A stretch of 49,460 nt of DNA from Patescibacteria group bacterium (lineage in GTDB: Bacteria > Patescibacteriota > 4484-211): the NCBI GenBank assembly GCA_018824115.1, contig JAHJGY010000022.1, forward strand, positions 1 to 49,460. The letters run 5' to 3'. A program made the translations under genes and the position numbers. The notes below the pieces were generated by a model, which was given only the letters and a program-made list of their open reading frames with translations, had not been told where the DNA came from and did no database searches. Of the stretch, positions 24,796-37,084 are shown one piece after another (position 1 is the first letter of the stretch; every line of letters starts with the position of its first letter).

Positions 24796-25539
24796 TCAGG
24801 CCAGCGGGCTATTGAAATAATCGATAGATCTTTGGGTGTAATAATGTAAGTTTTTCATCTGTCTTTGGGAAATGTGATCGCAAGCGTGTCCCCAATGGTA
24901 ACTTATCTTATCTCCCACTTTTAACTTATCCAGAAATCCTTTCCCTTTGTAACCCAGCTCAACTTCCCTTGCGGTCGCGGCACCCAGTTTTAACTGTTGG
25001 TTTTCAAAAACCAACGGGTGTGTTCTTACTAATAAAGAGGTCAGCTTGTTTTCGATCAATTGTCCCCAGCTAATACGGCAGTTGTCCATGGTGTTTAAGG
25101 TGTGATAAGAGGGATCCTTTCCTGTCCTTTTAAAGATATTGAAAACATGGAATGAGTGGTGCGGGAGAAGAGTATAGCTGGCGATTTTACTCCCTGTTTT
25201 GTTGTATTCAAATTGTCCCATTCTTTTACGGAGCAGTAAAAGTTCGTTAAGGAATCTCCAGTATTTTATATTTGTTACTTTTTCCAGTAACTGGTTACCA
25301 ACCCAATAGGCTTCGACTACTCGTTTGTCAAACGGGTCGTCAATGCGATTTTCCTGGGATATTAAGCGCAAATAGGGATACAGGGTTTCGAATTGTGAAA
25401 GGATGTTTCCTAGTTCTAAGTCTCCCCTACTCTCCTTTAGATGGTCTAAAACACTGGAATTTTGTGCCGGCCCGCAGTAACCAAAGAAATTAGGGGATGC
25501 GGCGTACTTAGCGCACATTAAAATGCCCGATTTATCCAT
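24796..25539 (-). CDS. conserved hypothetical protein (family not identified with confidence)
   Basis: 247-aa ORF whose start overlaps the upstream transporter stop by 8 nt. N-terminal CAKYAASPNFFGYCGP motif. No catalytic motifs recognised. Confidence 0.65.
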   Translation of the reverse strand: MDKSGILMCAKYAASPNFFGYCGPAQNSSVLDHLKESRGDLELGNILSQFETLYPYLRLISQENRIDDPFDKRVVEAYWVGNQLLEKVTNIKYWRFLNELLLLRKRMGQFEYNKTGSKIASYTLLPHHSFHVFNIFKRTGKDPSYHTLNTMDNCRISWGQLIENKLTSLLVRTHPLVFENQQLKLGAATAREVELGYKGKGFLDKLKVGDKISYHWGHACDHISQRQMKNLHYYTQRSIDYFNSPLA

Positions 25540-26734: not shown

Positions 26735-27679
26735 TTACGGGACGGTAAAAGTCATCTCGAAATAACTAGTTACCTGTTGCGGGTGTCCACCGAGCAGTAA
26801 AGCGCTGTTGGTATGGTCGATAATTTCTAGATCGGTTGCTTTGAGTTCTCTCATCGCATTGAGCAAGACTGAAATTGATGGCGCAGAATCAAGATAGCTG
26901 TTATCCAAATTAAAAAGAGATTCCGTATCAAATTCTTTTATGAGTTGTTCAGTGAGAGTATCGTTTATTAGTGATTCCTCTGCGTTCAGGTAATGTGAAA
27001 AATCTACGGAGGCTACTAAGACAACATTTTCATTTAGAATCTCGCTTGCCAGTAAAATTCCCAAGTCTTTCGCGTCCTGATTATCTAGTGAAGACATAAG
27101 AATGATCGGGACAACTTTTGTTTCTGGAAGGTAATATTTAAGGTAAGGCATCATGCCAGCGATAGAGTGCTCTTTTTGTAAGGTGTAATTGTCTTCTTGA
27201 ACAATGCTCCCCGCGATTAGTTTTTGAGTGATTTGGGTATTTGAGTGTATCTGGCCAAAAGGTGTTTCCCAGCCCCGTGTGGTTGTTAAGATTTTTCCTT
27301 TCCCAGCGTGATGGTGGTTAGGGCCAAGTAGAACAATAGATTCTGGGTATTGTTGATTTAATCTAGAAAAGAAATCTGAGAGTAATCTGCTTGCCAGTAA
27401 GTGATGCGGGACAATTCCTCCCTGCATCTTACTCTGCTGAGCGGTCTCCCCTACTCCAGTGGTGTTAATGCCACGGTAAAAATTGCCAGGTTCAAAGTAT
27501 TCAACCTCGAGAAAATGAATCGGTTCGTCGATAAGATTCTCGCTAACCGAGATACCCAGTGTTTCATTTTCTGGGCTAGTTTTTGTTAACATTAACCTAC
27601 TGTCAATAAAGTCAACTCCGTTGATTAAGATTATGATTAAAAACAGAGTGGTTATTAAGAAGATATTCTTTCTCGTCAT
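26735..27679 (-). CDS. Memo-like (AmmeMemoRadiSam system protein B family) protein with N-terminal membrane anchor
   Basis: GGIVPHHLLAS, GPNHHHAG and ASVDFSHY motifs of the Memo/dioxygenase-B fold. N-terminal TM helix (IFLITTLFLIIILINGV). Its ATG overlaps the stop of the upstream A2M-like gene (TAATG). Confidence 0.75.
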   Translation of the reverse strand: MTRKNIFLITTLFLIIILINGVDFIDSRLMLTKTSPENETLGISVSENLIDEPIHFLEVEYFEPGNFYRGINTTGVGETAQQSKMQGGIVPHHLLASRLLSDFFSRLNQQYPESIVLLGPNHHHAGKGKILTTTRGWETPFGQIHSNTQITQKLIAGSIVQEDNYTLQKEHSIAGMMPYLKYYLPETKVVPIILMSSLDNQDAKDLGILLASEILNENVVLVASVDFSHYLNAEESLINDTLTEQLIKEFDTESLFNLDNSYLDSAPSISVLLNAMRELKATDLEIIDHTNSALLLGGHPQQVTSYFEMTFTVP

Positions 27680-30600
27680 TACTCAATAATAATTGATGTT
27701 TCTGTTCCTAGGTTAAGATCATCCAGTGCATTCTGAGATTGGATAAGCACTGGTTCTCCCACGTATTCTCCCTTGGAAATAACGCGTGCATAGTAAACAA
27801 GTGGGTTTTGTTGGCTATTTCGGTAAGTGCAGAAATTTATTCTTTGTCCGACAGTTTCGTAAGGATAAGTGACTTCTAGTTGGTCTGACTGGGAAATTCC
27901 CCAACTGGATAATTTAGTAATCGGGCGTAATCCAGAAGGTAAGAAGTCGGTCACTTGGTAACAGCCGCCGTAAGCTTTGTTGGCTAACTTGTAAGTGATC
28001 TTTACTTTTACTAAATCTGATTCAGCCACCATTTTTACTGGTTGGTCATTCACTAAAAATGTGCGGTTTACCGCGGCATAGGGACTTTTATCAATGGTAG
28101 TTGAATCCACTGCCGTTTGGCGTACAATCGATAGGCCGACATTGTCACTAACCTCGCTAAAGGTAATACTTTCTGCTTCTGTGGAATTCAAATTCAGTTG
28201 CCATGACCTACCTAGTTCCAAATTCTTGGTTTCTGTAACGTTATTAACTGAGTAGGTGAAACTGACAGGCTCGGGGTTAGCCGAAGGGAGACTATTTGTT
28301 AAGTAAGAAAGTTTTTCAAGGTTAGTTAAGATATCTTTGGTGCGGTGATCATCAATGTATTTAAATAGCTTTTCACTTTTAGTATCGTTGAAAGCTTGAG
28401 CAATCTGGGCTGCTATGGTGGTAGCGGTTAGGATATCATCTTGATCCGAACCCGTGTTTAGGCGCAGGTACGGGCCAGACTCTTCACCGCAAGATTCGAC
28501 TACCTGCCGGTAGATAGCGTGGGCGTTTTGATAATCACCGGCCTCTGTTAACCCTAGAGCAAGATAGAGTTTCTCTGTTGTCGTAAGGCCAGATTGGGTA
28601 GATAGTCGTTTTAACATGACGAGAACCGGTTCGTCTAAAGAAGCTAGTCCATATAAAGCGCTGATTGTTTCATTAATATTAGAAGTTCGATTTTCAGTAA
28701 TTGCCCAGAAATAGTTTTTTAAGGCGGTCGAATCAAATTCATTTCCCGCGAGGGCGCTGACTTTAGCGCTAAGGTCAATTTCACTGCTGCTGTATGGCAG
28801 TAAGGTAATCCCGCCGTTGGGGGCCTGGTAAAGGGAAGGATTAAAATCGGGGATTGAACGATTAGTTTCAAAGTATTGGTTTAGCAGTTGAGTGCCTTTT
28901 ACGCGAGTAAGTCGTTGGTCAACGCGGTCTCCCCAGGCCCAGGATAGTTGGTTAAGTGGAGGATAATATCGTCCACGGTTATCATCGCTAAAAATAAGGG
29001 AAACACTGTCCTGGTGAGGGTTATCAACTATGGTATCTTCGGTTAGTTGAGTGTAAATAGCTTCCGTTCTAGCAAGACGTGAGCTAATTACTCGGAAAGT
29101 ACGAGCAACGGCATCGCTATAATTTCCTGCTTTGGCTTGGACGATTAGACGATGCTCACCTTCCTGTAAAACCGGAAGAGTATATTCTACTGTTTCAAAA
29201 GCAGAACCGGTAACGCTTTGTGGTTCGGTTACGCCAAGCGAAGGGATACTTATGGAGTATTTCACTTCTTGACCTTTTTGCAGAGTATCTCCATAGGCAC
29301 GTAACTTGATTTTTGGTTTATCTTTTAGCAAATATTCATTACTGATGGATAATTCGATGAAGAAAGGGAGCCGGACAATAAGATTGTTAGTACCGTGATT
29401 TGCTTTTAAGTCCTGAGTGATTCCGTGATAAGTAATACGCCAGGAAGTGAGGTTATCGGGAAGCTTAAATTTGAAAGTCCCATGGCCTTGTGAATCAGTC
29501 TGGGTAATGCCGAAAAACGCGTTGTCAGCGAAATTTTCCCTCACCAAGCCTTTCTCATTATGGACATAAAATCCTCCGGCTAAGTAGGTCTTATGATCCT
29601 TAATCTGGAGGTTGTAGACATTAAATTGTCCGTACTTTTGTTCAATTGAGGTGATCATGACACTGTCGCCATTCTCGTCTAGAAGAAAGTCTCCCGGTTC
29701 GGCTAGTCCGATTGGTTTCCATACTCCATTAATGAATAATCGATGTTCGGGAGTAACTTGGAGATCATGATTGATGACTAGTAGATGTTGTACCTTATGT
29801 TTATCTACGCGAATTACCTGGTCAGAGGTACTAATTTTACTTCCGGGAGAAGTAAGGGTTTGGATATTATCCCCTACTGTGATTTGGTCAATGGGTTGGT
29901 AAGATCCATTTGCTAGTTTGACTGGCGTTCCTTGGAGGAAGCAGCCGCCGCCGTATTCTGCGCTTACTTTGTCAACTGGGTATTGATGCGAAGAGTAGGT
30001 TTGGAGAATTCCCGAGGATATTTGGGTGTAAAGATCATCTAAGAAAGTGACGTATTGTTTTTTTAGTGCAAAGAAAGCTTCGTCTACTAAACTAACATTT
30101 ACTTCGGCTGCTTGTCCTTTACCTTCTTGATCTTTTACTTCCACGTTTAGCTCTACCTCTTCAGTTGGCTGGTATTGTAATTTTACTGGCTGGACAGTAA
30201 TATCTAGTTCTTTATCGCTACTGCGATAGATGACATTGGTTGAACTTGAGGTTTGATAGGTCCGTCCGTTGAAGTAAATTCCTCGGAGATAAACATTAGG
30301 GATATATTGTGGTGCCATCGTAAATTCAAATGATGGAGTAGTCTGTAGTTGATACTGGCTTAAGCCTCTTTGGTCAAGAAGGAATAAGTAATGCTGATCT
30401 TTTTGTTCTGGGAGAAGCTCTTCTCCGTCTTGGAAATCGGCTAATACCTGTTCGTCTAAACTGTACTTGTTCTCGTTCCCGCGCAGGACCAAGTGGTAGT
30501 AACCAGAGGAAGAAGGAGAGTTAACTGAGGATCCGGAGCGGCCATAGTAATATTCGTGACCATAGCAATAGACCGTTTGTTTAGTGACTCTCCCTCGTTC

Positions 30601-33093
30601 GTCTGTAGCAGTAAATTGCAGTTCATACAATTCCTTTTCTGCCATTGTAAATTGATAGGTTGCATCCCCGTTATTATCGCTAGTCAGGGAAATATTATCG
30701 ATCACCTCACTGTGGGAAGAGTAGGTATAACGCTTGCGAACCTTCTTGTTAATGAAATCATAATATTCTCCAGACTCCTTCTTTTCCCACCATTTTCGGG
30801 ACAAAGTACCAGTTATTTTTTGGTTGGCAATCGGCTCCCCGAGGTATTCAGTTGTTGTTCCCTGGTTGATTCCTTCTAAATTAATTTCATTAGCAGTAAT
30901 GGTCACCTTAGCTTGATTGTTTGTAAGGTATTCACGTTGTGCACTAAGATAAACTTTAGGGCCAAAAACACTAACAAAAGTACTCCCGGTGATTTCGCCT
31001 TCTTCAGATACTTTGGGTACAAATTCGATGTATTTTGTGCGCGGGTAGGAAATATAAGAATCAGTCTCGTATCCAGGAGTGTAGGGAATTTGAAATTGTC
31101 CTTTATCATCACTGGTTACTTCGCCCTCGATACTCCCACTGTATTTAAGTGTAACTTGTGGTACAGGAGATCCTTCATAAAAGGCAACTTCACCGTTAAG
31201 GGTTACGGGATCACCGGCAAAAACAGCTTTCGTTCCTGGCGTCACCGAGATTTTGTAGGCGGGCTTAGTATAGGCTTTGATGTTGATCCAGTTGGAGCTG
31301 ATGGTTTCTCCTTCGACCGAAAGGACAACTTGATAGTCTCCCGCTTTAAGGTTTGTAAATGAGAGATTTCCATTAAATGTACCGAAATCTGATGGAGAAA
31401 GAACTTTCTCTTGGACAGTACTTACTTGGTTGTTACCCGATGGCTCGAGGGCAACCTTAACCTCCGGGCGGTTAGCCGGTTGATCCCGATGTTTAATTAG
31501 TCCCCAGAAATAGATAGTATCAGTGGGCTGGTAAAGATCGCGGTCAAAATATAAATAGGCCCAGTAATTATCATTAGCTTGAGAGTAGTAGTACCACGGC
31601 GCTTCGTAATCAGTAAAGAAACGGCCGTAATTACCGTAATAGGCTTGATTAGCGGGTAGAACGAGACGTTCGCCATCATTGCCTGAGATAAGAAAATATT
31701 GGGCCTTGCTTTCCTCTTTGATAACTGCCGGTGTGTCGAAATAGGCAATGCCCTGTTCGTTGGTAGTGGTTTGGTAGTTCTCTCCGATTAAAGTTACGGT
31801 AGCGTTACCGAACGGTTTCTTAGAAGACAGATGATGGACCCAGATGATAGTCTTTGTTTTACTCGTTCCGATATAGCTGGAGAGGTCAGTGACTTGCATG
31901 AGAACTTGTTTGACAGTTTGCTCGTGGATTCCCTGGACAAGGTAGTAGCCATAACTTATTTTTTCCGGGAAGATGATGTACCCTTGATTCTCGCCCTTTT
32001 GAATCGGGGATGTGAAGGTTGAGATATGCTCAAGATTGTCGGTGCTTGTTAGGTATTTTGTCCAGCTGGCACTTGCCCATAAAGGCACTTTTTTTCTTTG
32101 CTTTAGTTCCTCAATAAAGGATTCTTGGGTGGGGAATCGGTAAATTTCAAAGGTTAGTTCAAGGTCGTTGGGTAGCTCATAAGCGTAGATGCCCAGAGCT
32201 GGCTCCTCAAACGATGGTACTTCAACGAATTGTTTCGCAAAATCGAAGTTGTAAACGGTATCCTTGGGGGTTGGCGTTGGCGGAGCCTGAGTCTCGAATT
32301 GGAAAGTATAATTACTGGCGAGTGTTTCATTGCTTTCGGCAAGGCCAAGTTCCTTACTAATGGTAACGGTATAAATGGTGGCGTATTCGAGTTTTTTGGG
32401 AACAAAGACGGCCGTCTTTTTATGCCGCTCAAAACTGCCTTCAACGGTAGGAGTGACACCAAAAAATAAGGAAGGGTCTTGGTAATTTTCGTGACTAAAA
32501 GTGATTTCTAGGCCTGTGTCAATTGGCACATTGCCCACTTTATCTCGAGGAAGCGAACTGGTGACCTTAAACGTCTTTTTAGTTTGGAATGCCCATTGGC
32601 AGGACTCGCCCGATTTAGCGAATCCATTTGTTAGGTGAAATCGGTAGATAGTGTCTGGTGTAAGTGTTTGGCTGGGAATAAGTTTAACGGTGGTGTCATT
32701 GATTTGTGAAAGCTGATAATTAAATTCTGGCTGTGCTGACAGAGAGTTCCTTACTTGATTAAGAGGTAATGCTTCCTTGCTGGTGATAAGAAACGGAGTC
32801 GTTAAAGTAACTCCGATACTGTCGGCAATTTCGGCTCTCATAGAAAATACGGGTTCGTCTACTGTTACTGGTTGTCCGTGCCAGTCGATTGGTGTGGGAG
32901 TAGGTGTTGGGCTAGGGCCAGTTGGTGGAATTAAGAGGTTAGGGAAAACTAGAAAAAGGATTGATAGGATAAAAATTAAACTGCTGAGGGCAAGCCAAAT
33001 TACCTTTTTACCGGATAAGTTCTGGATGGTGTCTCGAGAAAACAACGACCTCAATTTATTAGCGACAGTTCTCTTTTCAATCCGATCATCCAT
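27679..33093 (-). CDS. alpha-2-macroglobulin-family (MG-domain) giant surface protein with embedded Hint domain; no CxEQ thioester motif
   Basis: 1804 aa with an N-terminal TM anchor and a PSPTPTPTP linker. MG2-type DRDLYQPTDTIYFWGLIKHRD. A pre-bait block AAEVNVSLVDEAFFALKK and a post-bait block ENFADNAFFGITQTDSQGHGTFKFKLPDNLTSWRITYHG. Helical TED-like region and a C-terminal YQVTDFLPSGLRPI receptor-domain-like motif. Confidence 0.85.
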   Translation of the reverse strand: MDDRIEKRTVANKLRSLFSRDTIQNLSGKKVIWLALSSLIFILSILFLVFPNLLIPPTGPSPTPTPTPIDWHGQPVTVDEPVFSMRAEIADSIGVTLTTPFLITSKEALPLNQVRNSLSAQPEFNYQLSQINDTTVKLIPSQTLTPDTIYRFHLTNGFAKSGESCQWAFQTKKTFKVTSSLPRDKVGNVPIDTGLEITFSHENYQDPSLFFGVTPTVEGSFERHKKTAVFVPKKLEYATIYTVTISKELGLAESNETLASNYTFQFETQAPPTPTPKDTVYNFDFAKQFVEVPSFEEPALGIYAYELPNDLELTFEIYRFPTQESFIEELKQRKKVPLWASASWTKYLTSTDNLEHISTFTSPIQKGENQGYIIFPEKISYGYYLVQGIHEQTVKQVLMQVTDLSSYIGTSKTKTIIWVHHLSSKKPFGNATVTLIGENYQTTTNEQGIAYFDTPAVIKEESKAQYFLISGNDGERLVLPANQAYYGNYGRFFTDYEAPWYYYSQANDNYWAYLYFDRDLYQPTDTIYFWGLIKHRDQPANRPEVKVALEPSGNNQVSTVQEKVLSPSDFGTFNGNLSFTNLKAGDYQVVLSVEGETISSNWINIKAYTKPAYKISVTPGTKAVFAGDPVTLNGEVAFYEGSPVPQVTLKYSGSIEGEVTSDDKGQFQIPYTPGYETDSYISYPRTKYIEFVPKVSEEGEITGSTFVSVFGPKVYLSAQREYLTNNQAKVTITANEINLEGINQGTTTEYLGEPIANQKITGTLSRKWWEKKESGEYYDFINKKVRKRYTYSSHSEVIDNISLTSDNNGDATYQFTMAEKELYELQFTATDERGRVTKQTVYCYGHEYYYGRSGSSVNSPSSSGYYHLVLRGNENKYSLDEQVLADFQDGEELLPEQKDQHYLFLLDQRGLSQYQLQTTPSFEFTMAPQYIPNVYLRGIYFNGRTYQTSSSTNVIYRSSDKELDITVQPVKLQYQPTEEVELNVEVKDQEGKGQAAEVNVSLVDEAFFALKKQYVTFLDDLYTQISSGILQTYSSHQYPVDKVSAEYGGGCFLQGTPVKLANGSYQPIDQITVGDNIQTLTSPGSKISTSDQVIRVDKHKVQHLLVINHDLQVTPEHRLFINGVWKPIGLAEPGDFLLDENGDSVMITSIEQKYGQFNVYNLQIKDHKTYLAGGFYVHNEKGLVRENFADNAFFGITQTDSQGHGTFKFKLPDNLTSWRITYHGITQDLKANHGTNNLIVRLPFFIELSISNEYLLKDKPKIKLRAYGDTLQKGQEVKYSISIPSLGVTEPQSVTGSAFETVEYTLPVLQEGEHRLIVQAKAGNYSDAVARTFRVISSRLARTEAIYTQLTEDTIVDNPHQDSVSLIFSDDNRGRYYPPLNQLSWAWGDRVDQRLTRVKGTQLLNQYFETNRSIPDFNPSLYQAPNGGITLLPYSSSEIDLSAKVSALAGNEFDSTALKNYFWAITENRTSNINETISALYGLASLDEPVLVMLKRLSTQSGLTTTEKLYLALGLTEAGDYQNAHAIYRQVVESCGEESGPYLRLNTGSDQDDILTATTIAAQIAQAFNDTKSEKLFKYIDDHRTKDILTNLEKLSYLTNSLPSANPEPVSFTYSVNNVTETKNLELGRSWQLNLNSTEAESITFSEVSDNVGLSIVRQTAVDSTTIDKSPYAAVNRTFLVNDQPVKMVAESDLVKVKITYKLANKAYGGCYQVTDFLPSGLRPITKLSSWGISQSDQLEVTYPYETVGQRINFCTYRNSQQNPLVYYARVISKGEYVGEPVLIQSQNALDDLNLGTETSIIIE
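29557..29943 (-). other. Hint / bacterial intein-like domain (aa 1051-1179 of the A2M-like protein)
   Basis: Block A is CFLQGTPVKLANGSYQPIDQITVGDNI (Cys1 codon at 29943-29941). Block B is TPEH (TxxH). The C-terminal block is VYNLQIKDHKTYLAGGFYVHN (Asn codon at 29559-29557). The +1 residue is Glu, not Cys/Ser/Thr. Confidence 0.75.
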
Positions 33094-34364: not shown

Positions 34365-34409
34365 TTAACCTAATTATATATATGAGGGTGATTGGAGACA
34401 AGGTAGAGA

Positions 34410-34438
34410 TTGAGAAAGCTGTCTTTTATTTGTATAAT
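34410..34438 (+). promoter_or_regulatory. putative promoter TTGAGA-N17-TATAAT for the PBP gene
   Basis: TTGAGA at 34410-34415, a 17-nt spacer, and consensus TATAAT at 34433-34438. This places the transcript start near 34445, downstream of the ORF's first two in-frame ATGs (34382, 34442). Confidence 0.5.
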
Positions 34439-34462
34439 TCAATGAGACCCAGAAAACACGTC

Positions 34463-37084
34463 ATGCCGCGAAGGATTTCATCGAAACGAGCTAAACATAA
34501 AAACAAGTTTTGGGTTGCTGCTTCAAAGCGGAGATCTAAAATTAAAGGGGAAAAAAGAGTTAAGCGTGAACGGGTAGTACGCATCATTTCCTGGATTGCC
34601 ATTGGAATGGTAGCTTGTTGTATTTTGGGTTTAGTTTCTGCAGTAACTGTAGTCGCGTTTTTTTCAAAAGATTTACCTTCTCCAAATACATTAACTGAAC
34701 GTGAAATACCGCAATCAACTAAGATATTTTCTCGAGACGGGCATCTCCTTTACGAAATATATGCCGAAGAAAGGCGGACTTTGGTGGAACTAAAAGATAT
34801 CCCTCAATATTTAATTGATGCAACGCTAGCTACTGAAGATGCGGATTTCTATAAACATAGAGGATTTGATATCAGAGGGTTTGTTTATGCACTTTACCGG
34901 AATATACTTACCGGGAGTAGACAGGGAGGGTCCACAATTCCTCAGCAGTTAGTGAAGAATGTTTTATTATCTCCGGAGAAGACTTTAATTCGGAAGATTA
35001 AGGAATTTCTTTTAGCTCTCGAAGTGGAGCGCCGGTACAGTAAAGACGAAATTTTGCAGATGTATCTTAATGAAGTTCCTTACGGAGGTCAGGCGTGGGG
35101 CGTGGGTGCTGCTTCGGAAATGTATTTTGGTAAGCACGTGCGGGATGTAAGTCTGGCCGAAGCAACTTTGTTGGCAGGATTACCTCAGAGTCCAACCTAC
35201 TACTCACCATTTGGGACATATCCGGAGAACGCAAAGGCCCGGCAGGAATATGTTTTAACTTTAATGGTTAAACATGGTTCTATTACCCAGGAAGAGGCTG
35301 ACGAAGCAAAGAACGTTACATTACACTACCTACCACAGGCGATTAGTATTAAAGCACCGCACTTTGTGATGTTTGTGAAAAATAAGTTAGTTCAGGAATT
35401 TGGAGAGAAGATGGTGGAGCAAGGGGGATTGCGGGTAGTAACCACGTTGGATATGCAATTACAGAAAATTGCCGAAGAGGAAGTAAAATATCAACTTGAT
35501 CGTTTGGCAGAATCAAATGCGAGCGCGGGTAATGCGGGCCTTGTCTCTGTAGATCCGGAAAAGGGTGAAATTCTAGCGATGGTTGGTTCCAAGGACTATT
35601 TTGACGTGGAACACGATGGCAATGTAAATGTTACTTTAGCTGAGCGACAGCCTGGCTCTTCAATAAAACCGATTATGTACGTAACCGCTTTTGAGATGGG
35701 ATATACTCCAGCTACATACCTTTCTGACATTCGTACTTGCTGGAATGCACCTAGCGGTGATTTTTGTCCGCTTGAATCCGATGGAAAGTATTGGGGGCCA
35801 ATGCTTTTGAGAGATGCGTTAGCTAACTCACGAAATGTCCCGGCTGTGAAAATGCTGCAGCAGGTGGGAATTCAAAATACAATAGATACAGCTCATGCGA
35901 TGGGGATCACGACGTTGAATGAGCCGGAGCGGTATGGATTGTCGTTAACTCTGGGTGGGGGTGAGGTAAAGCTGATCGATATGGTGCAAGCTTTTTCCGT
36001 ATTTGCCCGGGGTGGTGTGAAAACCGATATTACGCCCTTGTTACGAGTGGAAGATAGCAAAGGAAAGGTACTTAAGAAGAAAGTTCAACCAAATGAGAAA
36101 AGAGTGCTTGATGAGAAATATGTGTATTTAATCAATAACGTTTTATCAGATAATGTTACACGGCAAAGGCTGTTTGGTGCAAGGAATTTATTGGAGATTG
36201 GAAGGCCAGCAGCAGTGAAGACAGGAACGACGAATGATAATCGCGACGCGTGGTGTATTGGTTACACTCCACAGCTGGTAACTGGCATCTGGGTGGGTAA
36301 TAATGATAATTCGCCAATGGCACAGAACGTTCAGGGTTCAACTGGAGCAACTCCGATTTGGCATCACTTTATGCGACGGGCTTTAGAGGGTCAGGAAGTT
36401 AGAGATTGGGAGAGACCGGACTCCATAATTAAGGTAACGGTTGATTTGTTATCAGGTAAATTACCGCAGGAAGGGAGGGATTACGCGAATCGGACAGAGA
36501 TTTTTGTGAAAGATACCGAGCCGACTCAAATTGATGATTTTCATATCACTGTTGATGTTTGTAAAGATAACGAAAATTTACTCGCGACTGACTATCATAT
36601 TGATCACGGCTTATCGATTCAACGGACTTTGCGAAAATTGGTCGAGATTAATAGTGATTGGCAGAGTTATACAGACCGATGGATTGGAGGTTTGCCGGAG
36701 TACCAAAGTCCACCCACCGAGTATTGTGCCATTGAGGTAGATGAACGAGATGCAGAAGAACCGATTGTGGAGATAAAATTGCCCGAAGATGGAGCGGAAC
36801 TACTGGTTTACGGGTTCGATGTGGAAGCAGAGGTCTATACGAACTCTACAATTACCAAGGTAGAATTTTACTGGGATGATATTTTGGTTGAGGAGGTTAC
36901 TTCGGTTCCTTATGCGGTTACTTATTCTTTATCAATGAACGAGCAGGGAGAACACCAGATTGTGGTTAAAGCTTTTGATAGTGAAGGTGATGAAGGGTCA
37001 TCGGCAATAACTGTTCACTTACCGATTAAAGAAAAAGTACCTACACCGACAATAAAAATTTCTCCAACTCTCGAAGTATTTTGA
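34463..37084 (+). CDS. class A penicillin-binding protein (glycosyltransferase + transpeptidase) with C-terminal Ig-like module
   Basis: GT51 motifs EDADFYKHRGFD, GGSTIPQQLVKN and RKIKE. Transpeptidase motifs SSIKP (SxxK), SRN (SxN) and KTGTT (KTG). The start is uncertain: in-frame ATGs lie at 34382, 34442 and 34463, and 34463 was chosen because of the promoter at 34410-34438. Confidence 0.9.
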   Translation: MPRRISSKRAKHKNKFWVAASKRRSKIKGEKRVKRERVVRIISWIAIGMVACCILGLVSAVTVVAFFSKDLPSPNTLTEREIPQSTKIFSRDGHLLYEIYAEERRTLVELKDIPQYLIDATLATEDADFYKHRGFDIRGFVYALYRNILTGSRQGGSTIPQQLVKNVLLSPEKTLIRKIKEFLLALEVERRYSKDEILQMYLNEVPYGGQAWGVGAASEMYFGKHVRDVSLAEATLLAGLPQSPTYYSPFGTYPENAKARQEYVLTLMVKHGSITQEEADEAKNVTLHYLPQAISIKAPHFVMFVKNKLVQEFGEKMVEQGGLRVVTTLDMQLQKIAEEEVKYQLDRLAESNASAGNAGLVSVDPEKGEILAMVGSKDYFDVEHDGNVNVTLAERQPGSSIKPIMYVTAFEMGYTPATYLSDIRTCWNAPSGDFCPLESDGKYWGPMLLRDALANSRNVPAVKMLQQVGIQNTIDTAHAMGITTLNEPERYGLSLTLGGGEVKLIDMVQAFSVFARGGVKTDITPLLRVEDSKGKVLKKKVQPNEKRVLDEKYVYLINNVLSDNVTRQRLFGARNLLEIGRPAAVKTGTTNDNRDAWCIGYTPQLVTGIWVGNNDNSPMAQNVQGSTGATPIWHHFMRRALEGQEVRDWERPDSIIKVTVDLLSGKLPQEGRDYANRTEIFVKDTEPTQIDDFHITVDVCKDNENLLATDYHIDHGLSIQRTLRKLVEINSDWQSYTDRWIGGLPEYQSPPTEYCAIEVDERDAEEPIVEIKLPEDGAELLVYGFDVEAEVYTNSTITKVEFYWDDILVEEVTSVPYAVTYSLSMNEQGEHQIVVKAFDSEGDEGSSAITVHLPIKEKVPTPTIKISPTLEVF

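Follow-up and report, generated by a model that had tools for sequence, protein, structure and literature searches.

We analysed a window of 49,460 nucleotides, namely contig JAHJGY010000022.1 of a Patescibacteria group bacterium (assembly GCA_018824115.1), which contains a gene for an alpha-2-macroglobulin (A2M)-like protein with a Hint domain of the bacterial intein-like (BIL) type. All coordinates are positions in this window, i.e. in the whole stretch of DNA, and refer to the minus strand unless stated otherwise. The host gene spans 27679..33093 (-) and is an intact open reading frame of 1804 amino acids (aa). The Hint domain comprises 129 aa and occupies aa 1051-1179, corresponding to 29557..29943 (-). 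It had been noticed there in an earlier sequence-only reading, and its coordinates, translation and flanks proved to be exact on the minus strand. The translation runs CFLQGTPVKLANG...YLAGGFYVHN, thus beginning with CFLQGTPV and ending with GGFYVHN. Its key residues are Cys1051 (29941-29943), His1099, Thr1114 and His1117 of the TPEH block, Asn1161, His1178 and Asn1179 (29557-29559).

Along the host protein Pfam reports Big_5 (174-268), bMG3 (401-477), MG2 (512-599) and A2M_BRD (873-1010), followed by the Hint families (1050-1180); C-terminal to the Hint domain come A2M/MG7 (1193-1252) and a weak bMG10 match (1688-1779). The A2M_BRD match (30064..30477 (-); PF07703, E 5.6e-11) covers the pre-bait macroglobulin (MG) body, a region that was modelled as beta-sandwich domains with a predicted local distance difference test score (pLDDT) of about 90. 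The post-bait MG domain (29338..29517 (-); Pfam A2M, PF00207, E 1.4e-7) carries the signature LPDNLTSWR, in which the residues P1212, N1214, T1216 and W1218 do not vary within the family. A profile built from 44 family members aligned end to end with E. coli YfhM (ECAM), profile positions 192-1636 matching ECAM 72-1609 at E 3e-65. The same profile aligned with Salmonella A2M at E 2e-56 and more weakly with TEP1, CD109, human A2M and C3/C5. For aa 861-1304 we obtained a 444-aa model (pLDDT 84) in which the MG domains and the Hint are confident, and Foldseek matched this model to A2ML1, C3/C4/C5, CD109 and ECAM as well as to BIL2. In NCBIfam the whole protein matched no family and the Hint domain gave only sub-threshold intein matches. 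The sole hydrophobic segment is an N-terminal transmembrane anchor (aa 28-60, 32914..33012 (-)) with a Kyte-Doolittle mean of 2.8, and directly after it there is a PT-repeat linker, PTPTPTP. Given this single helix and the linker, the bulk of the protein is expected to be extracytoplasmic. We therefore classify the host, on its predicted features, as a membrane-anchored, extracytoplasmic, thioester-less A2M-like protein.

The identity of the insert as a Hint domain, which had been proposed from its motifs, was confirmed by profile and structure searches. For the isolated domain we obtained Pfam matches to Vint (2.3e-7), PT-HINT (7.4e-7), Hint_2 (9.5e-6) and Intein_splicing (2.1e-5). When phmmer was run against the PDB sequences, the only Hint matches were the BIL2 domain entries 6tmm and 6y75, at 23% identity. 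AlphaFold2 predicted an all-beta fold for the domain with a pLDDT of 97.3, based on an alignment of 24 sequences. With this model Foldseek returned 60 PDB matches at E<=1e-3, and 50 of 50 among the matches listed have the Hint fold. Ranks 1-4 are the BIL2 domain of Tetrahymena BUBL1 (6y75, 6tmm) with a template modelling (TM) score of 0.89, and rank 5 is the BIL domain of C. thermocellum (2lwy, TM 0.88). They are followed by the RecA, DnaB and gp41-1 mini-inteins (TM about 0.8) and, lower down, by Hedgehog (1at0, TM 0.72). The top five matches are thus all BIL domains, ahead of the inteins, which agrees with the BIL resemblance that had been suspected. In predicted structure, inteins and Hog domains are both further from the domain than the BIL domains are.

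The class assignment follows the same line. Cys1, the block-B TxxH and the terminal His-Asn of class-1 inteins are all present, whereas the Cys, Ser or Thr that those inteins carry at position +1 is a Glu in this protein. Intein-like N-terminal motifs, a C-terminal His-Asn and a non-nucleophilic C-terminal flank form the pattern by which type-A BILs are defined (PMC4031507, PMC7765530), and the domain shows all three. We rejected a canonical intein on account of the +1 residue, the lack of an endonuclease and the vertical inheritance described below, and a hedgehog-type Hint on account of the His-Asn end, the missing sterol-recognition region and the lower TM score (0.72). PT-HINT (PF07591) is the best full-length Pfam match, covering positions 8-132 of 137; the isolated domain scores 29.9 bits against a cut-off of 27.7, whereas within the whole protein it falls below the cut-off with 26.6 bits. 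PT-HINT domains directly precede a C-terminal toxin and release it, whereas the present domain is internal to an A2M scaffold. With MG7, CUB/TED-like and C-terminal MG regions downstream and no toxin, we ruled out such a toxin-release module.

To place the insert within the host we compared its flanks with those of known A2Ms. The upstream flank reads ...YPVDKVSAEYGGG, ending in SAEYGGG, and leads straight into the Hint domain; the downstream flank reads EKGLVRENFADNAFFGITQTD...LPDNLTSWRITYHG, i.e. EKGLVRENFADNAFFG...LPDNLTSWRITYHG. As Pfam reports A2M_BRD at 873-1010 and A2M (MG7) at 1193-1252, the Hint domain lies between the two. The last residues before it, TYSSHQYPVDKVSAEYGGG (aa 1032-1050, 29944..30000 (-)), form a disordered linker that appears to be the residual bait loop; the linker ends in the conserved AE-x-GG, supplies Gly-1 of the N-extein junction and aligns to the ECAM bait segment ...GQGRLAALRFGGDGD. 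The C-extein junction EKGLVRENF (aa 1180-1188, 29530..29556 (-)) has Glu at +1 and a near-invariant Lys+2 and Gly+3; it is likewise a disordered linker and aligns to ECAM 953-963. In the model of aa 861-1304 the stretches aa 1032-1048 and 1182-1188 (model residues 172-188 and 322-328) have a pLDDT below 50 and are modelled as disordered. In the family profile the insertion point (...aeggG / hnekgge..RedF) stands opposite ECAM ...RLAALRFGGDGDELKRGGKPPVNHV. For ECAM, the segment Arg923-Leu942 (RYGADIYDIYGQVIEGQGRL) is a disordered loop that is removed by elastase, while Arg956, Gly958 and Asn963 lie in a stretch of the bait that, once cut, binds to the C-terminal MG domain and pushes the thioester domain aside (PMC4498604). 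Combining the alignment with these residues puts the Hint near ECAM 947-953, behind the loop that elastase removes and ahead of the segment that docks. The predicted site of the insert is therefore in the bait-region domain, just C-terminal to the protease-cleavable loop. The bait-region location claimed by the sequence-only reading is hence borne out by the Pfam order, by the profile alignment with ECAM and by the disordered linkers on both sides.

We then studied the conservation of the domain and its junctions across 60 distinct A2M-embedded Hints. The length is exactly 129 aa in 59 of them. Fourteen positions are invariant in 60/60: C1, F2, T6, T29, V43, H49, T64, H67, V109, N111, A122, V127, H128 and N129. 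At position -1 we observed G in 54 cases, A in five and S in one. At position +1 we observed D (32), E (13), Q (6), S (3), I (2), A (2), M (1) and T (1), so that the residue is non-nucleophilic in 56/60, as it had been described for the present protein, is D, E or Q in 51/60 and is Ser or Thr in only 4/60. Lys occupies +2 in 59/60 and Gly occupies +3 in 50/60. A non-nucleophilic +1 was also found in 34 of the 35 Hint-bearing loci from GTDB species-representative genomes (L008-L087). The ratio of non-synonymous to synonymous differences (pN/pS) of the Hint is about 0.14 in the closest pairs, and the Hint has diverged less than its host (p-distance 0.53 vs 0.63). By these measures the Hint is evidently under strong purifying selection. 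The reported zinc ligands of BIL2, His48 and His125, align with the invariant His49 (29797-29799) and Asn111 (29611-29613), which may bind a regulatory metal or else be a conserved component of the active site.

A survey of homologs for the insert had also been suggested, and for this we used two samples, the 120 best homologs and the 80 best loci among GTDB species representatives. The Hint is present in 29 of the former and in 35 of the latter. When the 129-aa Hint alone was the query of a word-indexed search, no homologs were returned; an exhaustive profile search was used instead and detected many further Hint clusters. Most Hint-bearing loci of the GTDB sample are labelled as members of the candidate phyla radiation (CPR, Patescibacteria): Collier-, Gottesman-, Roizman-, Parcu-, Morani-, Peregrini-, Peri-, Uhr-, Falkow-, Kerfeld- and Doudnabacteria as well as Saccharibacteria. 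The remaining ones are some automatically labelled third-party annotation (TPA) bins and one labelled Bathyarchaeia. The Hint-less relatives come from Clostridia and other Bacillota, from Dehalococcoidia and other Chloroflexi and from a few CPR. Among the Hint-bearing bins with labels outside the CPR, L038 (DATKWK010000017.1) is labelled Candidatus Bathyarchaeia, and L008, L009, L017, L031, L033, L037 and L039 are labelled Gammaproteobacteria or Pseudomonadales; these labels may be automatic or wrong, or gene transfer may have taken place. L037-L040 form a subgroup with the distinct junction KGGSGGG/C...HN/QKG.

In a neighbour-joining tree of the host proteins (Hint removed, not bootstrapped) 28 Hint-bearing sequences fall within one clade of 35. 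The other seven members of this clade have no Hint and branch at three separate places within it, which fits one gain of the Hint and at least three losses. The pairwise distances of Hint and host are correlated (Pearson 0.79), and in GC content the Hint equals its gene. One Hint-less protein (P0005) is 83% identical to a Hint-bearing one (P0003), and at the DNA level A-[Hint]-IK is cleanly swapped for GGG. The 129-aa Hint shows no sign of a homing endonuclease or of mobility. The sporadic distribution of a selfish intein was thus not found; the pattern is that of a single Hint-bearing clade, co-divergence with the host and no endonuclease. The Hint is, as far as the comparisons indicate, old and vertically inherited across many CPR phyla. 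A recent horizontal insertion was ruled out by the GC content, which equals that of the host, the fixed length and the co-divergence.

The Hint-less outgroups have a conserved AE-x-GG-EGG-x-ER-x-DF at the insertion site. The Hint is inserted between GG and E of this motif (AE-x-GG/EGG), so that the D or E at +1 is the Glu of the motif. In Hint-less relatives from Firmicutes and Chloroflexi (e.g. P0037-P0047 and P0059) the bait position is not hypervariable but holds the acidic, Gly-rich AE-x-GG-EGG-S-ER-K-DF, and some Hint-less relatives read AECGEGG there. For a broad-spectrum protease trap it is unusual that the 'bait' is conserved.

The host lacks the thioester of classical A2Ms. As had been claimed, a motif scan found no CxEQ anywhere in the A2M-like protein, which has six Cys in total; the sole CxEQ-like string, CGEE at 1535, is off the thioester position. 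In eight distant thioester-bearing homologs CxEQ falls in one alignment column, opposite Arg1390, where the present protein has the degenerate site R1390-V-D-Q1393 (28915..28926 (-)). LLPYSSSEID was rejected as the thioester position, because the same alignment gives GDRVDQ (1388-1393). The Pfam thioester-domain models gave no match at E<=0.1. The motif GDR[VIL][DE]Q is conserved in members with and without the Hint alike, the thioester Cys is missing family-wide, including the Hint-less members from Clostridia, Chloroflexi and CPR, and the lineages that have lost the Hint did not regain CxEQ. The loss of the thioester and the gain of the Hint thus seem to be uncoupled, and on these alignments the family has no need of the Hint to make up for the missing thioester. 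The sequence-only reading had suggested that the Cys1 thioester substitutes for CxEQ. The chemistry of this proposal is plausible by the precedent of BIL2 (PMC8616854), but the substitution itself is made less likely by the missing Cys in the Hint-less relatives. MagD of P. aeruginosa is another bacterial A2M without a thioester, and it is cleaved in vivo from 165 to 100 kDa (PMC3735191).

We favour, at about even chances, the reading that the insert is a domesticated type-A BIL Hint that acts as a built-in autoprocessing module and breaks the chain in the bait region. The sequence-only reading had likewise proposed autoproteolysis at the Hint termini in place of bait cleavage by a protease, which is chemically plausible because type-A BILs mainly cleave (PMC4031507). 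After export the N-terminal transmembrane helix would tether the protein, and the Hint would fold between its two flexible linkers. Cys1051 would carry out an N-S acyl shift on the Gly1050-Cys1051 bond, with Thr1114 and His1117 assisting, and the N-terminal half (the MG domains and the residual bait loop) would then end in a glycyl thioester. Cyclisation of Asn1179, assisted by His1178, would cut the Asn1179-Glu1180 bond and free the N-terminus EKGLVRENF.... As the +1 residue is not Cys, Ser or Thr, the branched intermediate could not form, and the thioester would mostly be hydrolysed, like that of characterised type-A BILs. The outcome would be a two-chain protein joined via the MG domain that straddles the bait, and a released Hint of 129 aa. 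The Hint would do autonomously what a protease does on a classical bait and furin does at the equivalent site of C3/C4/C5. The freed segment would correspond to the one in E. coli A2M whose docking on the C-terminal MG domain brings about the conformational change. We infer every chemical step from the conserved residues and from other BILs, the sequence features being the established part.

Several observations argue for such a self-cleaving module. The catalytic set of C1, T64-x-x-H67 and H128-N129 is invariant in 60/60. The BIL-like predicted fold, the low pN/pS, the non-nucleophilic +1 and the position between the A2M_BRD and A2M matches, with a disordered linker on either side, point the same way. 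BIL domains are found in secreted and surface proteins, an occurrence that the extracytoplasmic host fits. Members of the same Hint clade also stand in tandem with spacers of 2-4 residues in pilin-like secreted proteins, where plain splicing would make little sense. C3/C4/C5 have a furin site, and their chain is cut at the bait-equivalent position during maturation. Together with the cleaved MagD (PMC3735191) this indicates that two-chain or cleaved forms at the bait site are normal in the superfamily. Type-A BILs form an N-terminal thioester and cleave C-terminally by Asn cyclisation without a +1 nucleophile; cleavage products prevail, yet the freed amine can attack the thioester and ligate the flanks (PMC4031507, PMC7664689). 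There is also a number of points that weigh against self-cleavage. The chemistry of the Hint is extrapolated throughout, from conserved residues and from other BILs. If the family works like ECAM, constitutive scission would amount to premature firing of a spring-loaded trap. In three or more lineages a continuous poly-Gly linker stands in place of the Hint, so a continuous chain would be compatible with function. With the Hint inside the AE-x-GG/EGG motif and the acidic +1 being the Glu of that motif, the insert resembles a splicing element that restores its host. Purifying selection on the catalytic residues would also be expected for a tolerated, self-excising element, and simple hydrolysis would leave the near-invariant Lys+2 without an explanation.

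Several of these points lead to a clearly less probable, serious alternative, in which the domain is a splicing-proficient BIL. The Hint would be excised and the halves rejoined into a continuous chain like that of the Hint-less relatives, so that the Hint would add nothing to the trap and would be kept as a fixed element for which imprecise loss is impossible. The nucleophile would be either the alpha-amine of the +1 residue, the route suggested for type-A BILs, or the Lys+2 epsilon-amine, the latter giving an isopeptide splice. Excision and ligation would yield AEYGGG-EKG-LVRENF, which resembles the Hint-less AE-x-GG-EGG-x-ER-x-F, and the at least three clean losses have left short Gly linkers instead. 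Type-A BILs can splice by attack of a free amine on the thioester (PMC4031507) and BIL2 makes an isopeptide between a Lys epsilon-amine and a C-terminus (PMC8616854); Lys+2 in 59/60 and Gly-1 in 54/60 would suit an optimised ligation. However, cleavage exceeds splicing in the type-A BILs that have been tested. A tolerated element would furthermore be expected to keep or regain Cys, Ser or Thr at +1, where Ser or Thr occurs in only 4/60, and the Hint has neither a homing endonuclease nor a sign of mobility, its distances follow those of the host (r = 0.79) and its GC content is matched.

If the thioester is instead met by a foreign amine, the membrane-anchored N-terminal half would become covalently linked to a target through Gly1050. 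The target could be a lysine of the attacking protease, a protein of the host-cell surface or a cell-wall amine, and the Hint would replace the CxEQ warhead or act as a covalent adhesin. BIL2, the closest solved relative, attaches its N-extein to lysine residues on other proteins in an ATP-independent manner (PMC8616854), and its two zinc ligands align with the invariant H49 and N111. The reactive bond would lie in an exposed disordered loop, where a protease that cleaves ECAM would be positioned, and the canonical thioester is missing in the family. We consider such a hand-off unlikely. The Hint-less relatives also have no thioester and none was regained after loss of the Hint, which suggests that the family needs no warhead; an unprotected thioester in a flexible loop would be prone to hydrolysis or to attack by Lys+2 or the new alpha-amine, and no target-binding element is evident beside the Hint. 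A wider version, equally improbable in our view, makes the protein a novel type of A2M-like device with the Hint as its reactive centre. The Gly-Cys thioester would be resolved by an amine, either in cis by Lys+2, giving an isopeptide-spliced bait, or in trans by a lysine on a protease that has been captured or on a host-cell surface protein. The BIL-type thioester would then assume the covalent-capture role of CxEQ, and the Hint clade with 'HN-K' junctions, which stands in tandem in pilin-like surface proteins of the CPR, would serve episymbiotic bacteria generally for covalent cross-linking. Still further down we place a catalytically silent Hint, which would serve in the bait loop as a folded spacer or as an interaction module and whose surrounding linkers would be cut by proteases. 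The linker upstream of it (aa 1032-1050) could plausibly still act as a bait within reach of proteases, and some Hint domains have become inactive in other contexts. However, the catalytic positions are invariant in 60 diverged sequences and the length is 129 aa in 59/60; since Cys1 and the terminal Asn129, which have no structural role, are among the invariant residues, this explanation is very improbable.

Type-A BIL domains were reportedly described by Amitai et al. in 2003. With the C. thermocellum BIL (2lwy) our domain shares the Hint fold (TM 0.88), the N-terminal Cys, the TxxH, the His-Asn and the non-nucleophilic +1, and the two are also alike in having no homing endonuclease and in residing in an exported protein. 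Described BILs occupy hypervariable regions of non-conserved proteins (PMC7765530), whereas the present Hint has a fixed site within a conserved motif of a conserved family, a fixed length of 129 aa and vertical inheritance across CPR phyla. BIL2 of Tetrahymena thermophila BUBL1 (6y75, 6tmm), the best match in both sequence and structure, has a Gly-rich N-extein end before Cys1 and a lysine shortly after the C-terminal junction, as does our Hint. It differs in being eukaryotic and cytoplasmic, in its ubiquitin-like flanks and in its isopeptide conjugation, which has been demonstrated, and the identity between the two domains is only 23%.

ECAM, the Salmonella protein SaA2M and MagD have in common with the host the MG domains, the bait-region domain, the C-terminal MG domain, a membrane tether and an extracytoplasmic location. 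MagD also resembles it in having no thioester Cys, while ECAM and SaA2M belong to the thioester class. These bacterial A2Ms differ in that they are anchored by a lipobox and not by a transmembrane helix, and the Hint in the bait region is found in the present protein. Their operon partners are PBP1c (yfhM-pbpC) or magABCDEF, as opposed to a Memo-like gene here. In complement C3/C4/C5 an ANA domain and a furin-processed linker are inserted at the bait position and the chains stay together. A folded domain thus stands at the same topological site of the bait-carrying MG domain. In complement, however, an external protease cuts the tetra-Arg site and the insert is an anaphylatoxin, whereas here the insert would cut by itself.

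In full-text searches we found no description of a Hint, BIL or intein in a macroglobulin. A CPR genome paper describes A2M-domain membrane proteins as possibly defensive and does not mention the Hint (PMC8080830). The combination of Hint and A2M is visible in the precomputed Pfam annotations of database entries, so it is recorded in databases though without a known paper. The sequence-only reading had spoken of a new variant of the A2M trap. This holds in so far as no published description of a Hint in the bait was found, but it does not extend to the loss of the thioester, since thioester-less A2Ms such as MagD are already known (PMC3735191). The A2M and Hint parts are of known kinds, and what is new is their combination, the fixed site, the conservation across the radiation and the near-invariant Lys+2.

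Downstream of the host gene there is a Memo-like gene of 314 aa (26735..27679 (-); PF01875, E 1e-32) with an N-terminal membrane anchor (hydrophobic aa 1-31), and its start overlaps the stop codon of the A2M-like gene. The same arrangement occurs beside P0014, P0022 and P0003 and beside the Hint-less Firmicute P0036. Memo-like partners were located at 13217-14941 in L001, 13418-14332 in L003, 10854-11729 in L005 and 8397-10196 in L007, and in some distant Hint-bearing CPR loci the gene is fused to a PGA_cap domain. The A2M-like and Memo-like genes look like a conserved two-gene module. A gene for a class-A penicillin-binding protein (PBP; transglycosylase, transpeptidase and Big_7) lies at 34382-37084 (+); tyrS separates it from the A2M-like gene, at a distance of about 1.3 kb. 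As a conserved partner, comparable to pbpC of E. coli yfhM-pbpC, the PBP was ruled out by its absence from the neighbourhood in L001 and L003. A DUF6390 protein (E 1e-57) is encoded at 24796-25539 (-), downstream of an EamA transporter gene and the Memo-like gene.

Small proteins with pilin-like N-termini (P0122-P0148, e.g. P0123, P0124, P0127 and P0148) also contain Hints of the same clade, in tandem arrays of 2-13 copies. The spacers between the copies measure only 2-7 residues, for example HN/KGG/C, HN/KP/C and HN/MKSGGGGGGG/C. Across 218 tandem Hints Lys is found at +1 in 146 and Gly at -1 in 106. We know of no description of tandem Hint arrays in pilin-like proteins. Their junctions hint at thioester-lysine cross-linking.

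In A2M, complement C3/C4/C5, the insect TEPs and the bacterial A2Ms an external protease cuts the bait or activation site as the trigger. If a self-cleaving Hint holds the bait site, the present family would be the first A2M family with a built-in trigger, and a natural system for the effect of bait scission alone on an A2M scaffold. For intein biology it provides a clear case of a BIL that has become fixed at a single position in a conserved protein and has been inherited vertically throughout a large radiation; natural Hint 'deletion mutants' exist, and Lys+2 points to an amine-based ligation chemistry like that of BIL2. For the biology of the CPR the analysis describes a widespread large surface protein with a Memo-like partner, which may mediate host-cell attachment or defence.

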